From NCBI GenBank assembly GCA_048060815.1, contig JBGMQW010000001.1, forward strand, positions 1-44,037: DNA of 44,037 nucleotides. The letters are read 5' to 3'. The DNA is from Thiohalomonadales bacterium (GTDB lineage Bacteria > Pseudomonadota > Gammaproteobacteria > UBA6429 > Thiohalophilaceae). The notes under the pieces are model-generated. The model did no database searches and was not told the DNA's origin. It was given only the letters and a program-made list of their open reading frames with translations. Position 1 is the stretch's first letter, and every line of letters starts with the position of its first letter. This document shows positions 4,322 through 40,492 of this stretch, piece by piece. The position numbers and the translations under genes are program-made.

Positions 4322-5074
4322 TTATAATAAATCACTTATCACCGATGCGGTTTTCATTAACGCGTGATTTGGATTTTCTGATCGAAAAATTAACACATTA
4401 GTGGAACCTTCGCATTCACCAACCAGGCTATTTTCTACAATTTTACGCATTTGTTTGGGATCATTGTTAGAAATTTCACAAAAAGTAATATGCAGTTTAG
4501 AAGAATCATCTTTCAATGAGTTTAAAGTAGCATCATTGAGACCACAAAGTCCGACTTTCTCCTGTTTCAAAATAGCAATAAACTGTTTCGGTAGTAATTC
4601 TTCAAGTAACCCAGAGGTTTTTATTTCTTGTATATCAATACAGATATTTATTTGTGCCTGGCTGATTTTTAATAAAATATTAATAAAATCCAGTTTTTCA
4701 CTTGATAAATTACAAATATCTGAATACTTAAATACCAAGACTAAAGCTAAACTTCGAAAACCAACAAATGAAATTTTTTTTAAAAATTGCTGAACTTCTG
4801 TCAGTATTTCATCGTTTGACCTTGAATTAATATTATTTAGTGGTAGTTCGAATATTAGTCGACATGTTTCTTCACTATCTGCTATACCTTGCCCAAATAA
4901 CTCAAAATTTTCCTGTAGTAAGATCCACGGAATCATCAAAACTGAATACTCATTTGCATAATATGCAAATTGCCATTCTCTCGGTAAATCCTCAGGATAG
5001 AATGAATTATCCCAGGATTCATGTAACCAGCCATAAGAGCCGATATGTAGTTTATATTCGCTAGCCATAAACAC
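4322..5074 (-). CDS. Hypothetical protein, weakly DUF72 (YecE)-like at the N-terminus
   Basis: 250-aa ORF. Only the N-terminal HIGSYGWLHESWDNSFYPEDLP..YYANEYSVL resembles the DUF72 G.sGW....W...FYP...YA motif as I recall it. The rest is unrecognised. It lies 19 nt upstream of mlaF on the same strand. Confidence 0.4.
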   Translation of the reverse strand: MFMASEYKLHIGSYGWLHESWDNSFYPEDLPREWQFAYYANEYSVLMIPWILLQENFELFGQGIADSEETCRLIFELPLNNINSRSNDEILTEVQQFLKKISFVGFRSLALVLVFKYSDICNLSSEKLDFINILLKISQAQINICIDIQEIKTSGLLEELLPKQFIAILKQEKVGLCGLNDATLNSLKDDSSKLHITFCEISNNDPKQMRKIVENSLVGECEGSTNVLIFRSENPNHALMKTASVISDLL

Positions 5075-5431: not shown

Positions 5432-6217
5432 ATGGTGAAATTTAAATTTTTTTGTCTAGGCTTAGCAATTTACCTGCTAACTGCTTGTGCTTCCATTGAA
5501 GGTCCATTAGATGAAAACGATCCATATGAATCCTATAACCGTAGCATGAATAGCTTTAATGTCAGCTTTGATGATTATATTCTTAAACCAGTTGCTGAAT
5601 CATATCGAGATTATGTTCCTAATCCGATACAAACTGGTATTAATAATTTTTTTAGTAATTTAAATGACATTACAGTAATAGCGAATGATCTATTACAATT
5701 TAATTTTGTTCAATTAGTTCAAGACGCATCACGCTTTGCATTTAACACTACAGCAGGATTTCTAGGTATATTTGATGTCGCAACATCAATGGACCTCCCT
5801 AAACATAACGAAGACTTTGGACAAACATTTGCGGTCTGGGGTTATAAAGATAGTGCCTATTTAATATTACCTGTAATTGGACTTGCTGGTGGTACCATCC
5901 GGGATTCAATAGGTTTTGGTATTGATACGCTTTACTTAAATGTACTTGTTCCAAGCGATCTTAATAATATATATTGGGGTGCAATCATAATAAAAAATAT
6001 AGATGTTCGTGCAAATTTATTAAATGCATCAAAGGTGCTTGAACAAGCAGCACTTGATCCGTATATTTTTAAGCGCGAGAGTTATCTATCAAAAAGGAAA
6101 TCACTCATCTATAATGGCAATCCACCAATAGCTAAGATTGAGTTTCCAAAAGATGATATCGATTTAGAACTCGAATTGGAATTAGAATTAGAAATGCAAA
6201 AACAACTTACAAACTAG
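5432..6217 (+). CDS. mlaA: Outer-membrane lipoprotein MlaA (VacJ)
   Basis: VacJ-family sequence (YNR.M..FN...D......PVA..Y....P) with a signal peptide and lipobox LLTAC. I prefer the ATG at 5432; the ORF-track start at 5411 is a TTG. Confidence 0.88.
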   Translation: MVKFKFFCLGLAIYLLTACASIEGPLDENDPYESYNRSMNSFNVSFDDYILKPVAESYRDYVPNPIQTGINNFFSNLNDITVIANDLLQFNFVQLVQDASRFAFNTTAGFLGIFDVATSMDLPKHNEDFGQTFAVWGYKDSAYLILPVIGLAGGTIRDSIGFGIDTLYLNVLVPSDLNNIYWGAIIIKNIDVRANLLNASKVLEQAALDPYIFKRESYLSKRKSLIYNGNPPIAKIEFPKDDIDLELELELELEMQKQLTN

Positions 6218-6297: not shown

Positions 6298-7323
6298 ATG
6301 GATTACTCATTTTTTTATGCTATAGCTGCAATTATTTTTGGAATCATTTTTCTGGTTTGGGGTGCTGATCGATTTGTTGATGGTGCTTCAGGAATTGCTG
6401 CTAACATGGGGATTTCACCACTACTTATTGGTTTAACTATTGTTGGTTTCGGTACATCTGCTCCTGAAATCCTGGTCTCAATCGTTTCTGCATGGCAAGA
6501 TAATCCGGGTATTGCCGTTGGTAATGCGATTGGTTCAAATATCACCAACATTGCCCTGGTGTTAGGTATTACTGCAATTATTACCCCAATTAGCATCCAT
6601 TCAAACATTTTGCGTCGTGAATACCCGGTTATGATTCTGATCATGGTAATTGGTTTATTATTAATTCTTGATGGTTATCTGGGAATTGTTGATGGTTTGA
6701 TACTAATTACTGGTTTAGTTGCTTTGCTTTTCTGGATTGTCAAAGTAGGCACCAAAAAATATAAGCATGAACCATTACAAGATGAATTTGAGCACCATAA
6801 ATATAAACTATCAAAATTTAAAGCTATTCTGTGGCTAATTATCGGTCTTTTCCTGTTAATAGTTAGTTCAAAATTTCTTGTTTGGGGCTCGGTATTTATT
6901 GCCCAAAAATTGGGGATGAGTGACCTATTAATTGGGCTGACTATAATTGCAATCGGAACAAGTTTACCCGAATTAGCGACCTCGGTTACCAGTGCATTAA
7001 AGAATGAACACGAGATTGCGGTTGGTAATGTAATCGGTTCAAATATGTTTAATATCCTTGCAGTATTAGGAATTCCCGGTTTAATATCACCCCATAAGCT
7101 CGATTCGATGGTATTACAACGTGATTATCCGGTAATGTTAATTTTAAGTTTGATATTAGGACTGTTGATTGGGTTTGGATTCAAATCCAGATCTAAATCC
7201 AGTACTCAAACTGATTCAAAATTTAAGCTGTCGAAAAATCAGTGCATAACCAAAATTGAGGGCGCATTTTTATTATTTGGGTATATTTGTTACATCTTTA
7301 TACTCTATATATACTCAAGCTAG
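6298..7323 (+). CDS. yrbG: CaCA-family cation/Ca2+ exchanger YrbG
   Basis: 341-aa membrane ORF with two alpha-repeats (GTSAPEI...GNAIGSNITNI and GTSLPEL...GNVIGSNMFNI). It sits between mla and kdsD as in E. coli. Confidence 0.88.
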   Translation: MDYSFFYAIAAIIFGIIFLVWGADRFVDGASGIAANMGISPLLIGLTIVGFGTSAPEILVSIVSAWQDNPGIAVGNAIGSNITNIALVLGITAIITPISIHSNILRREYPVMILIMVIGLLLILDGYLGIVDGLILITGLVALLFWIVKVGTKKYKHEPLQDEFEHHKYKLSKFKAILWLIIGLFLLIVSSKFLVWGSVFIAQKLGMSDLLIGLTIIAIGTSLPELATSVTSALKNEHEIAVGNVIGSNMFNILAVLGIPGLISPHKLDSMVLQRDYPVMLILSLILGLLIGFGFKSRSKSSTQTDSKFKLSKNQCITKIEGAFLLFGYICYIFILYIYSS

Positions 7324-33190: not shown

Positions 33191-34219
33191 TTAAATAGAT
33201 ACCGTCGGCAAATATCGAAGTCCTGCAATCCCTAAGCTTAATTGTAACAATTCATCCCATAAATTGCCTATTTCATTACCTTTAATTATACGATCAGTCT
33301 TATTTGATTTGCGAAGTAATGCCTGCAGTGAGGCTATTGAATGGCGATTTAAAGCATTTCGTACCATAATTTTTCGTTTATCCCACACTCGTTGTTGTCG
33401 AAATACTAATTCCATTGCATCGCCATTTTCTAAACAACTTTTCATTTTAAGCAAGCTACGAATTTCTTTTGAAAGAGACCAGTTTATTAAAAGTGGAGTA
33501 ATACCTTCTGATTTCAAACCATATAAAATACGGGGAATATGTTTAAGTTCGCCTTTTAAAGCTTCATCAGCTAATTTAAATATATCATAGCGGGCACTGT
33601 CAGCTACAGATTGCTCGACAATATCAAGAGTTAATTCATTCGATGGACAAATGAGTGATAATTTCTCGATTTCCTGGTCGGCAGCTAATAGATTACCCTC
33701 TATTCTATCAACCAGTATTTGTAAGGCATTCTCACTTGTTTTTAAGTTTCGTAAATTTAACCTTGATATGACCCAGGAACGAAGCTCAGTTCCTTCAATA
33801 GGCCATATTGTGACTGAAACCCCTACATTTAATATCGATTTAAACCATTTTGTGGTGGTAGTCGCTTTTTCCAGTTTATTAGTAACAATCAATAACAAGG
33901 TGTCACTGGAAATATTCTCACAGTATTCCACAAGCATTTGTCCACCTTCTTTACCGGGTTTACCATTTGGCATACGCAATTCAAGTATTTTCTTTTCTGC
34001 GAATAATGATAAACTATTTTTCGACATTGAAAAATCTGACCAACTAAATCCTTTTTCTATAAATAACAATTCTCTATTGCTATAACCTTGTTCCACTGCC
34101 TTTTCTCTAATTAATTTGATAGCTTGTTGTACTTGAAATGGCTCATCCCCACTGACTATATAAACAGGTTGTAAGGATGTAGTTAGCTGTTGTTCAAGAT
34201 TATTAAAATAAATTTTCAT
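33191..34219 (-). CDS. holA: DNA polymerase III delta subunit HolA
   Basis: 342 aa. N-terminus L..QL...L.PVYIVSGDEPF. Downstream of lptE as in other gammaproteobacteria. Its ATG lies 5 nt from the end of a palindromic element. Confidence 0.88.
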   Translation of the reverse strand: MKIYFNNLEQQLTTSLQPVYIVSGDEPFQVQQAIKLIREKAVEQGYSNRELLFIEKGFSWSDFSMSKNSLSLFAEKKILELRMPNGKPGKEGGQMLVEYCENISSDTLLLIVTNKLEKATTTTKWFKSILNVGVSVTIWPIEGTELRSWVISRLNLRNLKTSENALQILVDRIEGNLLAADQEIEKLSLICPSNELTLDIVEQSVADSARYDIFKLADEALKGELKHIPRILYGLKSEGITPLLINWSLSKEIRSLLKMKSCLENGDAMELVFRQQRVWDKRKIMVRNALNRHSIASLQALLRKSNKTDRIIKGNEIGNLWDELLQLSLGIAGLRYLPTVSI

Positions 34220-34224
34220 GAATA

Positions 34225-34470
34225 CTAGGGTCTGTTGATCTTTCAGATTTTAGAACTGAATAAAGAATTATAATACCAATGATTATCAATAAATAGTAAA
34301 AGTTAGGACACGGAATTGGGATACCCCTATCAAGACCGTGTGCCGCAGGACGCGGCACCCGAGCATGCCATGGATGGCAATGTTTTGCGTGTCTTGATAG
34401 GGGTATCCCGGTTTCGTGGCCGGATTTAAACTACAAATCAGATAAAATTTGAAAGATCAACAGACCCTAG
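34225..34470. mobile_element. MITE-like palindromic element, type A (246 bp maximal extent)
   Basis: Terminal inverted repeats CTAGGGTCTGTTGATCTTTCAGATTTT (34225..34251) and AAAATTTGAAAGATCAACAGACCCTAG (34444..34470) match at 26 of 27 positions. Read as TA-flanked, the element is GGGTCTG...CAGACCC (34228..34467). Non-coding, with a GC-rich internal hairpin. Only one copy in this window. Confidence 0.65.
34318..34409. repeat. Type A internal hairpin: perfect 19-bp arms around a GC-rich core
   Basis: GGGATACCCCTATCAAGAC (34318..34336) is the exact reverse complement of GTCTTGATAGGGGTATCCC (34391..34409). The core at 34330..34397 is homologous to the type B core in inverse orientation. Confidence 0.85.
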
Positions 34471-34471
34471 T

Positions 34472-34731
34472 TAACCTGAACTCGGTATAAGCAAATATAA
34501 TTTAAATAACAAAATTAGGTAGTTACGTATGAGTAATACTAAATCCATCGGCTACGGAAGGGCTGTAGCCCATTCAAGACTCGCAAAACATGCCATCCAT
34601 GGCCGCTCGACTGCCGCGTCCCTGCGGCAGACGGTCTTGAATGGGCTACAGCCCTTCCATATCCTTGCATTTGTACTCGCAATTTATTAATGGATGCTGT
34701 TACATGTTTTTCTTATCCTGAGTTCAGGTTA
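34472..34731. mobile_element. MITE-like palindromic element, type B, copy 1 (260 bp)
   Basis: TIRs TAACCTGAACTCGG... and ...CCTGAGTTCAGGTTA. Non-coding and bounded by TA at both ends. A second 260-bp copy at 39660..39919 differs at 16 positions with no indels. Confidence 0.85.
34556..34658. repeat. Type B internal hairpin: perfect 25-bp arms around a 53-nt GC-rich centre
   Basis: GGAAGGGCTGTAGCCCATTCAAGAC (34556..34580) is the exact reverse complement of GTCTTGAATGGGCTACAGCCCTTCC (34634..34658). An inner 7-bp stem pairs CTGCCGC (34611..34617) with GCGGCAG (34624..34630). Confidence 0.9.
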
Positions 34732-35262
34732 GTTAGATTCTTTAAAAGCAAAACTCAGTCTGGTTAACATTTGATTTACGATAAATTCACTCATTTCCAA
34801 TTTTAACCGAATTTCTTGATCACCTGATGCAAGTCTATTTAATGGATCAATATTGTATTCACGAGTCTGACGTAGTTCCTGATTTTTTAATAAAACTTTT
34901 CCTTTATTGTCATATACTTGAAATCCAATAACCAGGTCTAGTTTATAGGCTGAGGCTTTATTACCTGAATCTACAGTTAACACACGTCTAACAAAGTTAT
35001 TTTTGGTGATCGAAAGTATCGCAGTTGAATCTTCTTGTATATCGATACGTTCAATACCGAGTTGTTTCATTCTTCTAAATAAAACAGTTCCAATTTCATT
35101 TGAACCTACATCACCAGCGACATAAATATTTTTCAATACATCGGGAACTTCTATCGCGCCACGAAGATGAAAACCGCATGACACTAATAAAACACAACTA
35201 TTCAATAGTAAGAATATAATTACTATTTTAAAATTTTTATTAACATTATTAATATTTTTCAT
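34729..35262 (-). CDS. lptE: LPS-assembly lipoprotein LptE (RlpB)
   Basis: 177 aa with lipobox LLVSCGFHLRG, typical of LptE, following leuS. The stop codon TAA (34729..34731) is made from the last base of element B plus its flanking TA. Confidence 0.88.
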   Translation of the reverse strand: MKNINNVNKNFKIVIIFLLLNSCVLLVSCGFHLRGAIEVPDVLKNIYVAGDVGSNEIGTVLFRRMKQLGIERIDIQEDSTAILSITKNNFVRRVLTVDSGNKASAYKLDLVIGFQVYDNKGKVLLKNQELRQTREYNIDPLNRLASGDQEIRLKLEMSEFIVNQMLTRLSFAFKESN

Positions 35263-35272
35263 AATTTAAACA

Positions 35273-37756
35273 TTATCGAACAACAATATTAACTAATCGA
35301 CCAGGAACAATGATAACTTTTGAAATACCCTTGCCATTCGTGAATTTTTTAATATTCTCATTTTCCAATGCCAACTTTTCAGTCTCATCACGACTTGCAT
35401 CGGCAGGTATCTCAATACGTGCACGTAATTTTCCATTAACCTGTACAACTAATTCCAGACTATTACGAACTAGTGCCTGTTTATCAACTTTCGGCCATGT
35501 TGCATCAATAATAATTTCATCATGACCTAATGCTAACCATAGTGTATGACATACGTGAGGAACAATTGGAGCCAGCATAAGCACAATATTATCCAGTGCT
35601 TCTTGCATAATTCCATAATCTTCAACAGAGTTATATTCTACTTTATACAAGACATTGACTAATTCCATTATCGCGGCAATTGCAGTATTAAAAGTAAACC
35701 GTCGTTCGATATCATCAGTACATTTTCCAATAGTTTCATGCAACAATCGTCTAAGTTTTTTCTGCTGTTCATTTAAATTTGAACTGGATTCTGTAATATA
35801 ATTATTAAACTCGGTGTTTTGATGTTGGTACACTAAATTCCATAACCGTCTTAAGAAACGAAATGCTCCTTCAACCCCTGAATCTGACCATTCGAGTGAT
35901 TGTGTCGGTGGAGCGGCAAACATCATGAATAAACGTGCTGTATCGGCACCATATTTTTCAATTAAAACCTGTGGATCAACCGTGTTGCCTTTGGATTTTG
36001 ACATTTTTGAACCATCTTTTAACACCATACCCTGTGTTAATAATTTTTTAAAAGGTTCATCAATGTTTATCAGTCCTTCATCTCTCATTAATTTAAGAAA
36101 AAATCGAGCATACAACGAATGTAAGATCGCATGTTCTATACCACCAATATAATGATCAACGGGTAACCAATAAGAAGCTCGAGAATCCAACATAAATTCT
36201 GAATTATCCGGGTTACAATAACGAGCAAAATACCAGGATGACTCCATAAATGTGTCAAATGTGTCGGTCTCTCGTTTTGCTTTACCCCCACAAGCTGGAC
36301 AACTAACATTGTAGAATTCAGGCATTGATTTAATTGGGGAATTTACACCATCGAGTGTTACTTCTTCTGGAAGTACCACCGGTAAATTTTTCGTTGGTAC
36401 CGTTACTTCACCGCATTTATCACAATTAATAATTGGAATAGGACTTCCCCAATAACGTTGACGGGAGATTCCCCAGTCACGAAGACGATAATGAGTTTTA
36501 ACTTGACCTTTTTTCTTTTTTTCAAGAAACGAAGCTATTTTATTAAATGCCTGGTCTGATGTTAATCCGGTATAATCACCGGAATCAAGTAAAACACCTT
36601 TTGCTGTTATTGCAGCTTTAGTTAATTCATTATCATGTTCTACTTTTGTGTCAGGTTTTATAACCTGCTTTATTTGCAAACCATATTTCTTTGCAAATTC
36701 CCAATCACGTTGATCATGGGCAGGTACTGACATTACAGCGCCTTCGCCGTATCCCATCAAAACAAAATTTGCGATAAAAACCGGAACAAGATCACCTGTA
36801 ATTGGATGTATGGCTTTTAAACCTGTGTCGATCCCTCTCTTTTCAACTGTTTCTATGGTTTTTTCAGCTGTTCCCAACGATTTACATTCATTAATAAAAG
36901 TTAAAATATTTGCATGGAATTTTGATGTTTCCAGAGCAAGTGGATGTTCAGCTGCAATAGCAAGATAGGTAACACCAAACAAAGTATCCGGTCTTGTTGT
37001 AAAAACGTTGACTGTTTGTTCAGTATTTGCAATTTCAAAACCTATTTCAACACCTAAAGATTTACCAATCCAATTATGTTGCATGGTTCGAACTTTATCA
37101 GGCCATCCACCAAGACTATCCAGATCTTCAAGTAACTCTTCAGCATAATCGGTGATTTTCATAAACCATTGAGGTATCTCTTTACGCTCAACTGTTTCAC
37201 CACATCGCCAGCAGCATTCATCTATTACCTGTTCATTGGCTAAAACTGTCTGATCGTTTGGACACCAATTAACAGAAGCGGTTTTTTTATAGACTAAACC
37301 TTTTTTATAGAGCTGTATAAATAACCATTGCTCCCATTTATAATAATCAGGATCGCATGTCGCAATTTCTCTATCCCAGTCATATGCAAACCCCAACTCT
37401 TTCAGTTGCTTACGCATATAATTTATATTTTCTCTAGTCCATTTACCAGGAGCAACATTATTTTTAAGAGCTGCATTTTCAGCCGGAAGACCAAATGCAT
37501 CCCAACCCATCGGTTGCATTACATTCTTGCCCAACATACGTTGATATCGGCTAATCACATCACCAATGGTATAATTACGCACATGACCCATGTGTAATCG
37601 CCCACTGGGATACGGAAACATTGAAAGACAATAAAACTTCTCTTTGTCTGATTTTTCATTAACAGCAAAAGACTTGTTTTGCTCCCAATAATCCTGAACA
37701 TCTTGTTCAAGTTTTTCTGGATGGTATTGTTCAGCTATTTTATTTTCTAAAGGCAT
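35273..37756 (-). CDS. leuS: Leucyl-tRNA synthetase
   Basis: 827 aa. HIGH-type motif [15 protein letters not shown] and KMSKS motif [10 protein letters not shown]. Confidence 0.97.
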
Positions 37757-39258: not shown

Positions 39259-39594
39259 ATGCAAGCAGAAGTAAATGGTCAAGTCGTTGAGCTCAGTGAG
39301 GCTGGGTGGTTATTAAATTTAGATGAATGGAGTGAAGAGCTCGCATTAGAAATTTCAAAAACTGAAAAAATTCAGGAAATGACAGACGAACATTGGGATA
39401 TAGTTAAATTAGCTCGAGAATATTTTACAACTAATGGAAGTGTTGCTGAGCCACGTGTATTTTCTAAACTACTGAAAGAAAAGTTTGGTAAAGATCGCAG
39501 TAGCCAAAAATATATTTATACTCTGTTTCCAACTGGGTTAATTAAATGCGCTAATAAAGTCGCAGGACTACCCCGTCCTAAAGGCTGTAGTTAA
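39259..39594 (+). CDS. TusE/DsrC-family sulfur-relay protein
   Basis: 111 aa. HW.IV...R.Y......P and the C-terminal arm LFP.G......K.AGLPRPKGCS with the penultimate Cys. Strong SD AGGAG. Confidence 0.85.
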   Translation: MQAEVNGQVVELSEAGWLLNLDEWSEELALEISKTEKIQEMTDEHWDIVKLAREYFTTNGSVAEPRVFSKLLKEKFGKDRSSQKYIYTLFPTGLIKCANKVAGLPRPKGCS

Positions 39595-39659: not shown

Positions 39660-39919
39660 TAACCTGAACTTGGGATAAGCAAATATAATTTAAATAACAA
39701 AATTCAGTAGTTACGTATGAGTCATACTAAATCCATCGGCTACGGAAGGGCTGTAGCCCATTCAAGACTCGCAAAACATGCCATCCATGGCCGCTCGACT
39801 GCCGCTTCCCTGCGGCAGACGGTCTTGAATGGGCTACAGCCTTTCCATATCCTTACATTGGTTCTCGCAATTTATTAGTGGATGTTATTACATGTTTTTC
39901 TTATACCGATTTCAGGTTA
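39660..39919. mobile_element. MITE-like palindromic element, type B, copy 2 (260 bp)
   Basis: Identical to copy 1 (34472..34731) at 244 of 260 positions by hand alignment, in the same orientation and TA-bounded. Lies in the intergenic region between the tusE-like terminator and the DUF1451-like gene. Confidence 0.85.
39744..39846. repeat. Type B internal hairpin, copy 2
   Basis: Same 25-bp arms as copy 1, except one position that becomes a G:T (G-U in RNA) pair. The inner 7-bp stem is intact, with one change in its loop. Confidence 0.9.
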
Positions 39920-39988: not shown

Positions 39989-40492
39989 ATGAAAAATTCT
40001 AATAAATCAACTTTTGTTGAAACTTACAATCGTATACTGGAAAATTTATATAATATAAAAAATTCTGTTGAAGATACGTCGCGTGAAGATTTGTCGATAA
40101 AAATGGAGTATGCAAAAAAGAAATTACAAGAATTTGAAGATATCACAAAAGAAGAAATTGATATCGTAACAAAGTATTTACACAGAGATATTACAGCAGC
40201 AACAAATCATTTGAACAAAACCAAAAATAATATTAAAGAGTGGATAGACAAAGACATAAAGTTAACAGAAGATAAATTACTTCATTTGTTTGTTAATGTT
40301 GTTGACCAAAGTCGAGTTGAGTTGCTCGAACTAGAAACTTTATTACATGAATGGCATAGCGGTGAAGTAACCGGCATTGGAGTTTTGGAATGTAAAAATT
40401 GTGGTGAAAAGATTACTTTTACCGAAACACAAATTATTAAAAATTGTTCAAAGTGTAATGGTGAAATATTTCACAAATACTTTGATTTTTAG
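39989..40492 (+). CDS. Zinc-ribbon-containing protein (DUF1451-like)
   Basis: 167 aa: a helical N-terminal part (Y..IL..L, EEID.V.KYL.RD), then GEVTGIGVLECKNCGE...CSKCNG..F, a C-x2-C ... C-x2-C ribbon. The family name is from memory. Confidence 0.65.
   Translation: MKNSNKSTFVETYNRILENLYNIKNSVEDTSREDLSIKMEYAKKKLQEFEDITKEEIDIVTKYLHRDITAATNHLNKTKNNIKEWIDKDIKLTEDKLLHLFVNVVDQSRVELLELETLLHEWHSGEVTGIGVLECKNCGEKITFTETQIIKNCSKCNGEIFHKYFDF

Follow-up and report, generated by a model that had tools for sequence, protein, structure and literature searches.

The DNA described here is a stretch of 44,037 nt (called the window below) of the metagenome-assembled contig JBGMQW010000001.1 from a Thiohalomonadales bacterium, and the feature under study is the junction between its genes lptE and holA. 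The list of open reading frames (ORFs) places leuS (35273..37756), lptE (34729..35262) and holA (33191..34219) on the minus strand, where proA is also encoded. lptE was assigned through Pfam LptE matches on orthologues in syntenic relatives, and holA, which encodes DNA polymerase III delta and has its ATG at 34219..34217, through PF06144 and PF14840 on its homologues. We observed that lptE and holA are 509 nt apart and that the gap is made up of two palindromic non-coding elements, A and B. The first-pass annotation of this DNA had described the gap as filled by such a pair, and the ORF coordinates and the sequence both agree with this. The spacer contains only ORFs of chance size (53 aa or less in the ORF list), and its RNA is predicted to fold at -229 kcal/mol (z = -14.5 against shuffles). 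GC content is 54-61% in the cores of the elements as compared to ~30% in the surroundings. A scan of the window gave no tRNA or tmRNA, and a similarity search found no resemblance to annotated plasmids or phages.

Element A has a shell of 240 bp (34228..34467) of the kind seen in miniature inverted-repeat transposable elements (MITEs). Its ends are terminal inverted repeats of 18 nt without a mismatch (GGGTCTGTTGATCTTTCA; 34228-34245 and 34450-34467), of which chance alone would give 0.02 in the window, and a duplicated TA flanks it at 34226-27 and 34468-69. In metagenomes, we found 8 complete elements with the same termini; their flanks have only TA in common, often as N-TA-G, which bears out the TA duplication that had been proposed for A. 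The target here is C-TA-G. TA flanks such as those of A are the target behaviour of the IS630/Tc1-mariner superfamily, and in the explanation that we consider likely as a whole, A belongs to a TA-duplicating class of this type. The likeness of A, with its termini GGGTCTGTTGATC, to bacterial MITEs of that superfamily lies in the target site; no cognate transposase was identified in the sampled loci.

Element B is present twice in the window. The copy in the lptE-holA gap, B1, has a shell of 256 bp (34474..34729) whose ends read ACCTGAAC...GTTCAGGT with TA on either side. Its termini are imperfect (ACCTGAACTCGGTATAAG / CTTATCCTGAGTTCAGGT), about 19 nt long, and conserved across 12 elements, 11 of them from related genomes. 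Thus the elements that the first-pass annotation had delimited at 34225..34470 (A) and 34472..34731 (B) are real, while the bounds it gave were 1-3 nt off. B1 lies between two TAGTTA direct repeats (like the shells of A and B1, without strand). The left one (34468..34473) begins with the two bases that also serve as the right-hand TA of A, and the right one (34730..34735) shares bases with lptE, namely with its last codon (AAC) and with positions 1 and 2 of its stop. When we examined the 11 B-type elements with both flanks, a perfect 6-nt TANNTA repeat was present in six (TAGTTA, TAGCTA, TAAGTA, TAATAA and, twice, TAATTA) and a 5-of-6 match in another four, and the central NN was the same in 10. 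These flanks contradict the TA-only duplication that had been claimed for B. Within the same overall explanation, which we hold to be likely, B represents a class distinct from that of A and leaves TANNTA direct repeats.

The present lptE stop codon, TAA, consists of the flank bases 34731 and 34730 and of the terminal base of B (34729). The earlier description of a stop split by B and rebuilt from the flanking TA and the end base of the element was therefore correct. As the B terminus (TAACCTGAACTCGGGATAAG) has a stop in all three frames within 19 nt, an insertion over the stop codon would be harmless to LptE; rebuilding the stop as TAA would have left the protein unchanged.

We compared this junction with that of relatives found by HolA homology (72-83% identity). 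They come from uncultured gammaproteobacteria, and the names attached to them, where there are any, are Thioalkalispiraceae or hydrothermal-vent metagenome. An exact-sequence look-up of the window's own HolA returned no contig, so the comparison is one of relatives and not of strains. In 7 contigs from six lineages with identical gene order, the lptE-holA spacer was 4, 5, 9, 10 or 15 nt, and none had a long homologous spacer. In two of these genomes, CAYQUC01 and CAZEPW01, A- or B-type elements are present at other loci, with none at lptE-holA. Since the relatives have gaps of 4-15 nt, the filled gap appears to be derived by insertion, in keeping with the view, already held in the first-pass annotation, that mobile elements entered a formerly tight junction.

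Removal of B with one hexamer, and of A with one TA, gave the reconstruction GAA TCT AAC TAG tattc ATG on the coding strand, i.e. an empty site GAATCTAAC TAG TATTC ATG with a 5-nt spacer and TAG as the original stop. The closest relative (L001, HolA 83% identical; sampled loci are cited by L numbers) reads ACT AAT TAG ttttc ATG, in agreement with the reconstruction as to both the stop and the spacer of 5 nt. The predicted empty-site sequence is GAATCTAACTAGTATTCATG, and the junction with A only would read …CAGACCCTAGTTAGATTC…. As the direct repeat of B is TANNTA, the ancestral spacer would have been 5 nt with a TAG stop. The 9-nt spacer and TAA stop reconstructed earlier presupposed a TA-only duplication of B, which the flanks of the B-type elements do not allow. 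We also observed that no Shine-Dalgarno precedes holA in any of the 7 relatives, nor here. Its absence had been presented together with the insertion; it is not a consequence of the insertion and, judging from the relatives, is ancestral.

The terminal inverted repeats, the target duplications, the dispersed copies at non-orthologous sites, the empty orthologous sites, and the small, non-coding nature of the elements (240 and 256 bp) together indicate that A and B are genuine MITEs. In our view, the junction was probably formed by two separate non-autonomous transposon insertions in the same AT-rich hexamer at the lptE stop. Independent insertions had been proposed before, and this is supported by B having its own direct repeat around B alone. 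A and B would each have hit the hexamer TAACTA (coding strand) that overlaps the lptE stop in the ancestral ...GAA TCT AAC TAG tattc ATG, and, with both using the same hexamer, either could have come before the other. Each shell would have brought in a GC-rich cargo of ~125 nt, in which a long basal stem is topped by two short hairpins with GGA loops. The MITEs were presumably mobilised in trans, and may be selfish or near-neutral passengers.

The first-pass annotation had treated A and B as unrelated elements with unrelated termini. The termini are indeed unrelated, but the GC-rich cores are homologous. Alignment of A with the reverse complement of B revealed a shared block of ~125 nt, with ~88% identity over the inner 69 columns, and both cores match the TwoAYGGAY family of Rfam (RF01731). 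The A core (34301..34431, plus strand) scored 34.2 bits (E = 0.002) on RF01731 and 128.9 bits on model R1; the B1 core (34540..34669, minus strand) scored 36.6 bits (E = 6e-4) and 138.8 bits, respectively. The two cores are oppositely oriented and convergent, 244 bp apart. The sense strand of the B1 core is the transcribed strand of lptE-holA, and that of the A core is antisense to the lptE-holA transcript. Both RF01731 scores fall below the gathering score of 43 bits; nothing in the window passes an Rfam scan at this threshold, and the link to TwoAYGGAY is visible only at the E-value threshold. A homologue in a third shell type, C (L021:2968-3094), scored 43.8 bits, i.e. above the gathering score. 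We therefore describe the window copies as TwoAYGGAY-like cores on new MITE shells and not as curated RF01731 members. A match of the B arm to the Legionella small RNA (sRNA) LPR69 (E = 0.33) was dismissed as chance.

The closing stem and the two sequential hairpins were present in the folds, the consensus structure and the pair counts. The basal stem has 19 perfect bp (~30 bp in total) in A and 25 perfect bp in B1, which are the inner arms of 19 and 25 bp that had been noticed before. The loop of hairpin 1 is CAGGAC in A, AGGGAC in B and ACGGAY in the C-type homologues. Hairpin 2 has the loop AUGGAU in all copies examined, an invariance that is partly by construction, as most of these copies had been picked out by a pattern containing this hairpin. 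Besides the two GGA loops, each core has an AGGA that is conserved at the foot of the basal stem. Across 105 model-aligned cores, 97.5% of the cells were paired (24-43% in slid controls), and compensatory changes were seen in 21 of 39 pairs, 19 of these among the 27 basal-stem pairs; as the copies are related by descent, the counts of pair changes and wobbles are higher than the number of independent events. Both small hairpins are nearly invariant, for hairpin 2 partly owing to the search pattern.

Mismatches were strand-asymmetric, with wobbles favoured on the Rfam-sense strand (G-U 165 vs A-C 37) and G-U exceeding A-C at 20 positions against 8. The sense folds were 9-13 kcal/mol more stable than the antisense folds (-79.1 vs -66.3 kcal/mol for the A core; -81.4 vs -72.7 kcal/mol for the B1 core). 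The strand-asymmetric wobble and the stability of the sense fold therefore favour one specific strand, as RNA or as single-stranded DNA, as the folded species. None of the 61 placeable core copies lies inside a long ORF, and the orientation of the cores relative to the flanking genes is random (++ 15, -- 15, +- 16, -+ 10). At 34366..34389 (+), and at the equivalent place in all cores, the second hairpin is followed by AUGUUUUGCG and was flagged in the scan as a weak terminator-like site; all copies examined agree in this stretch to the base, again partly by construction of the search pattern. In the core variants at L012:3350-3530, L046:6310-6372 and L071:226-395, an extra hairpin follows the second AYGGAY hairpin, or the first hairpin is much enlarged.

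The occurrence of the core elsewhere was evaluated with a 22-nt pattern against species-representative genomes and then with a profile search over 628 kb of related DNA. The pattern scan gave 82 stretches, nearly all in the metagenome-assembled genomes (MAGs) HyVt-415 and Dive96_bin4.222 and in several Thioalkalispiraceae bins, with many at contig ends; a further 26 stretches came from metagenomes. The profile search yielded 117 core copies. The shells fall into three types. Shell A has the termini given above, TA-only flanks and 8 complete elements, which include a 268-bp family with an unrelated interior. Shell B has the termini ACCTGAACTCGGGATAAG and the TANNTA direct repeat, perfect or at 5 of 6 positions in 10 of the 11 elements with both flanks, and shell C (HyVt-415, 232 bp) has the termini CACTGCTGTCCCGTTAAC and a 9-bp duplication that is perfect in at least 15 copies. 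Across related vent gammaproteobacteria, the same ~125-nt core is thus carried in at least three shell types, which differ in the class of their target duplication.

The C-type family of HyVt-415 (DRJK01; L003-L084) has dozens of copies, many of them at contig ends, and is probably a main cause of assembly breaks in this MAG. Local head-to-tail groups of two or three C-type elements, ~210 bp apart and with their cores on the same strand, were seen at L056:1-531 and L079:1-302. In ~6 of 50 C-type copies (about 12%) and in one B-type copy, the whole core, G-U positions included, is inverted relative to its shell. The C-type cases are L007:3140-3371, L039:~4740-4990, L045:2996-3227, L055:~1470-1700, L080:7013-7248 and L082:6987-7218, and the B-type case is L005:6820-7021. 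Such cases might have arisen by inversion at the core's short palindromic ends, or by separate capture of the core in either orientation. We also looked for shells without a core, as would be expected if the core were an insertion of its own, and found one C-type case (L073, 7879..7979) with deletion-like boundaries and one A-type deletion (L105).

Elements with A-type termini are varied in their interior. The 268-bp family, from the Ga0256845 metagenome (L086, L098, L101, L104, L106, L107, L110), has the A termini and TA flanks around a wholly different interior with no TwoAYGGAY core. A minimal version (L092) consists of just the two termini, and in the A-type deletion derivative (L105:265-~440) the basal stem is kept and both inner hairpins are deleted. 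At L096:~6930-7222 and L100:3358-~3660, A-type termini enclose other hairpins with GGA loops, e.g. GCTACACGGATGTAGC and CAATGCAGGAGCACATTG, and GGA-loop hairpins may thus recur as cargo apart from the TwoAYGGAY-like core. Matches to the A-terminus pattern in L088 and L109 lie inside ordinary coding genes and were set aside as chance.

The second B copy of the window, B2 (39662..39917; core 39728..39857, minus strand), shares 94% identity with B1 and is located between a dsrC-like ORF (39259..39594) and a DUF1451 ORF (39989..40492), directly after a terminator-like hairpin aaagtcgaatatttattcggctcttttt. The spacer between these two genes is 394 bp here, while the orthologous spacer in L002 is 128 bp. 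The first-pass annotation had made the mobility of the elements depend on the existence of other genomic copies, and B2, along with the many more copies in related genomes, provides them.

Some of our observations weigh against two separate MITE insertions. In ~0.9 Mb of sampled loci, we found no autonomous transposon with these termini, i.e. no pair of terminal inverted repeats enclosing a transposase gene. The flanks of B2 (TAAATA / TAGTTA) match at 4 of 6 positions and so do not form a clean duplication, unlike those of most B-type members. A promoter and terminator scan predicted neither a sigma-70-like promoter nor an intrinsic terminator on the transcribed strand of the lptE-holA spacer. 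(A TATAAT at 34269..34274 (+) has no usable -35 and was not called as a promoter.) The window is also a metagenome assembly, in which repeats can be misassembled. Finally, the convergent pairing of A and then B recurs at another locus in another genome (L064, CAYQUC01), which hints at more than two chance hits; an insertion preference beside an existing element, or a paired unit, could be at work.

If A and B formed one composite convergent doublet, moving or maintained as a pair, this recurrence would be accounted for. In the MAG CAYQUC01, at a locus unrelated to lptE-holA, an A-type core (L064, 5586..5682, +) is followed by a B-like core (5756..5882, -), with 9 nt between the elements. Moreover, TwoAYGGAY doublets are enriched over chance in Pseudomonadota with a median spacing of 249 bp (bioRxiv 10.64898/2026.09.22.753630), close to the 244 bp between the window cores. 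However, the enriched class of that preprint is divergent, while the window pair is convergent, and the partners are spaced unequally (4 nt here, 9 nt at L064). The duplications also point to single units: B1 alone sits inside its own TAGTTA, the B-like partner at L064 inside its own TAATTA, and A has its own TA. B is alone at B2, 11 further B-type elements have no A partner, and A-type termini stand alone in 8 elements. We consider a composite doublet unlikely. An apparent A and B pair at L043 is an A copy with a truncated right end and a lone B-like terminus ~115 nt away, and was not counted as a doublet. It is far less probable still that the pair was created by misjoining of repeat copies into the lptE-holA junction during assembly, even though the many copies at contig ends in related MAGs indicate that these repeats break or confuse assemblies. 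Both junctions are exact, with lptE at full length with its stop, the holA ATG kept and shell-specific duplications in the flanks, and excision restores the geometry of the relative's junction base for base.

With two separate insertions as the preferred explanation, we considered what they may do to expression. In the simplest reading, lptE and holA would still be co-transcribed, with read-through across both elements. holA would then be translated from its AU-rich start region, and the close link to lptE termination that is open to the relatives with 4-15-nt spacers would be lost or altered. RNase III could plausibly act on the long perfect duplexes (25 and 19 bp). The first-pass annotation had suggested, by analogy with Correia, ERIC and RPE elements, that such hairpins could serve as RNase III sites, terminators or promoters; on the transcribed strand of the spacer, as noted, neither a promoter nor a terminator is predicted. 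More speculatively, fold-back of A and B might keep the lptE stop and the holA start close together, which could preserve termination-reinitiation coupling across 509 nt.

A functional role of the cores themselves was also considered. They might be RNAs retained by the host, e.g. as Csr/Rsm decoys or sponges, with the sense B core in the lptE-holA mRNA regulating holA. Several GGA motifs in hairpin loops, a trait of Csr/Rsm-titrating sRNAs, are present in the cores: two GGA loops each (AUGGAU, with AGGGAC, CAGGAC or ACGGAY) and the conserved AGGA at the foot of the basal stem. That CsrA may bind the TwoAYGGAY loops has been suggested before (PMC4333381; bioRxiv 10.64898/2026.09.22.753630). The strand asymmetry of the wobbles, the more stable sense fold and the conservation of the core in three unrelated shells fit such a role as well. 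The random orientation of the cores relative to the flanking genes does not, and neither a promoter nor a terminator was found consistently. Of the three cores of the window, two are antisense to the transcription around them, and the number of copies, as well as their location at contig ends, is what selfish repeats typically show. A tblastn search with E. coli CsrA as the query did not find csrA in the sampled DNA, a small and therefore uninformative sample. Retention of the cores by the host for such a function seems to us improbable, if a little less so than the composite doublet.

The features of the core were compared with those of known repeats. Correia elements of Neisseria are likewise small, non-coding and bounded by terminal inverted repeats, and their target duplication is TA, like that of A. 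They are located in or near operons and form long hairpins in transcripts; RNase III cleaves these hairpins, which may also contain promoters. They differ in having no sequence similarity to A or B, a size of ~100-155 bp and no GC-rich multi-hairpin cargo, and no promoter is predicted here. REP/REPIN sequences, mobilised by RAYT, are also abundant intergenic palindromes of Gammaproteobacteria; however, REPs are 20-40 nt and make no target duplication. An identity of A, B or C with REP/REPIN was ruled out by their size of 200-260 bp, with terminal inverted repeats and target duplications. As for the IS630/Tc1-mariner MITEs, which A and its relatives resemble in being flanked by TA alone, B (TANNTA) and C (9 bp) fall outside that class.

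TwoAYGGAY itself (RF01731) was described in 2010, when its very long closing stem was noted (Weinberg et al. 2010, PMC2864571), and its loops were put forward as CsrA sites in 2015 (PMC4333381). In Pseudomonas, its copies are many, vary widely in number, are flanked by repeats and form doublets, an expansion called mobile-element-like and left unsettled in that study (Li et al. 2026, bioRxiv 10.64898/2026.09.22.753630). The same preprint mentions variants with additional AYGGAY-containing hairpins, and REP arrays that adjoin TwoAYGGAY copies in Pseudomonas fluorescens SBW25. These three sources (PMC2864571, PMC4333381 and the preprint) do not describe terminal inverted repeats, target duplications, empty sites or a diversity of shells for TwoAYGGAY. 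Our cores share with the family the long closing stem, the two sequential GGA-loop hairpins, the multi-copy intergenic occurrence in Gammaproteobacteria and pairs ~250 bp apart. They differ in that the window copies score below the gathering threshold and have AGGGAC or CAGGAC, and not AYGGAY, as the first loop. They differ also in lying inside defined shells with terminal inverted repeats, target duplications and exact empty sites in relatives, and in the convergent arrangement of the pair, the enriched class in Pseudomonas being divergent.

Since A and B carry the same module in different transposon shells, the TwoAYGGAY motif seems to spread as a passenger of transposable elements. For this motif, an orphan among structured RNAs since 2010, the locus and its relatives offer evidence of mobility that is exact to the base, in terminal inverted repeats, class-specific target duplications and empty orthologous sites. 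With several unrelated shells sharing one module, a "mobile-like RNA" becomes testable, with defined ends and a defined sense strand. A rather doubtful extension, somewhat less so than retention by the host, is that the module is selected cargo, the same strand-specific folded RNA being carried on at least three unrelated backbones in either orientation, so that MITEs would scatter a protein-binding module, possibly one bound by Csr/Rsm. If this were true, a sense copy of the core would now lie inside the mRNA of an essential replication gene. The lptE-holA junction is in any case a natural experiment, in which an essential, translationally coupled pair without a Shine-Dalgarno tolerates 0.5 kb of very stable hairpins.

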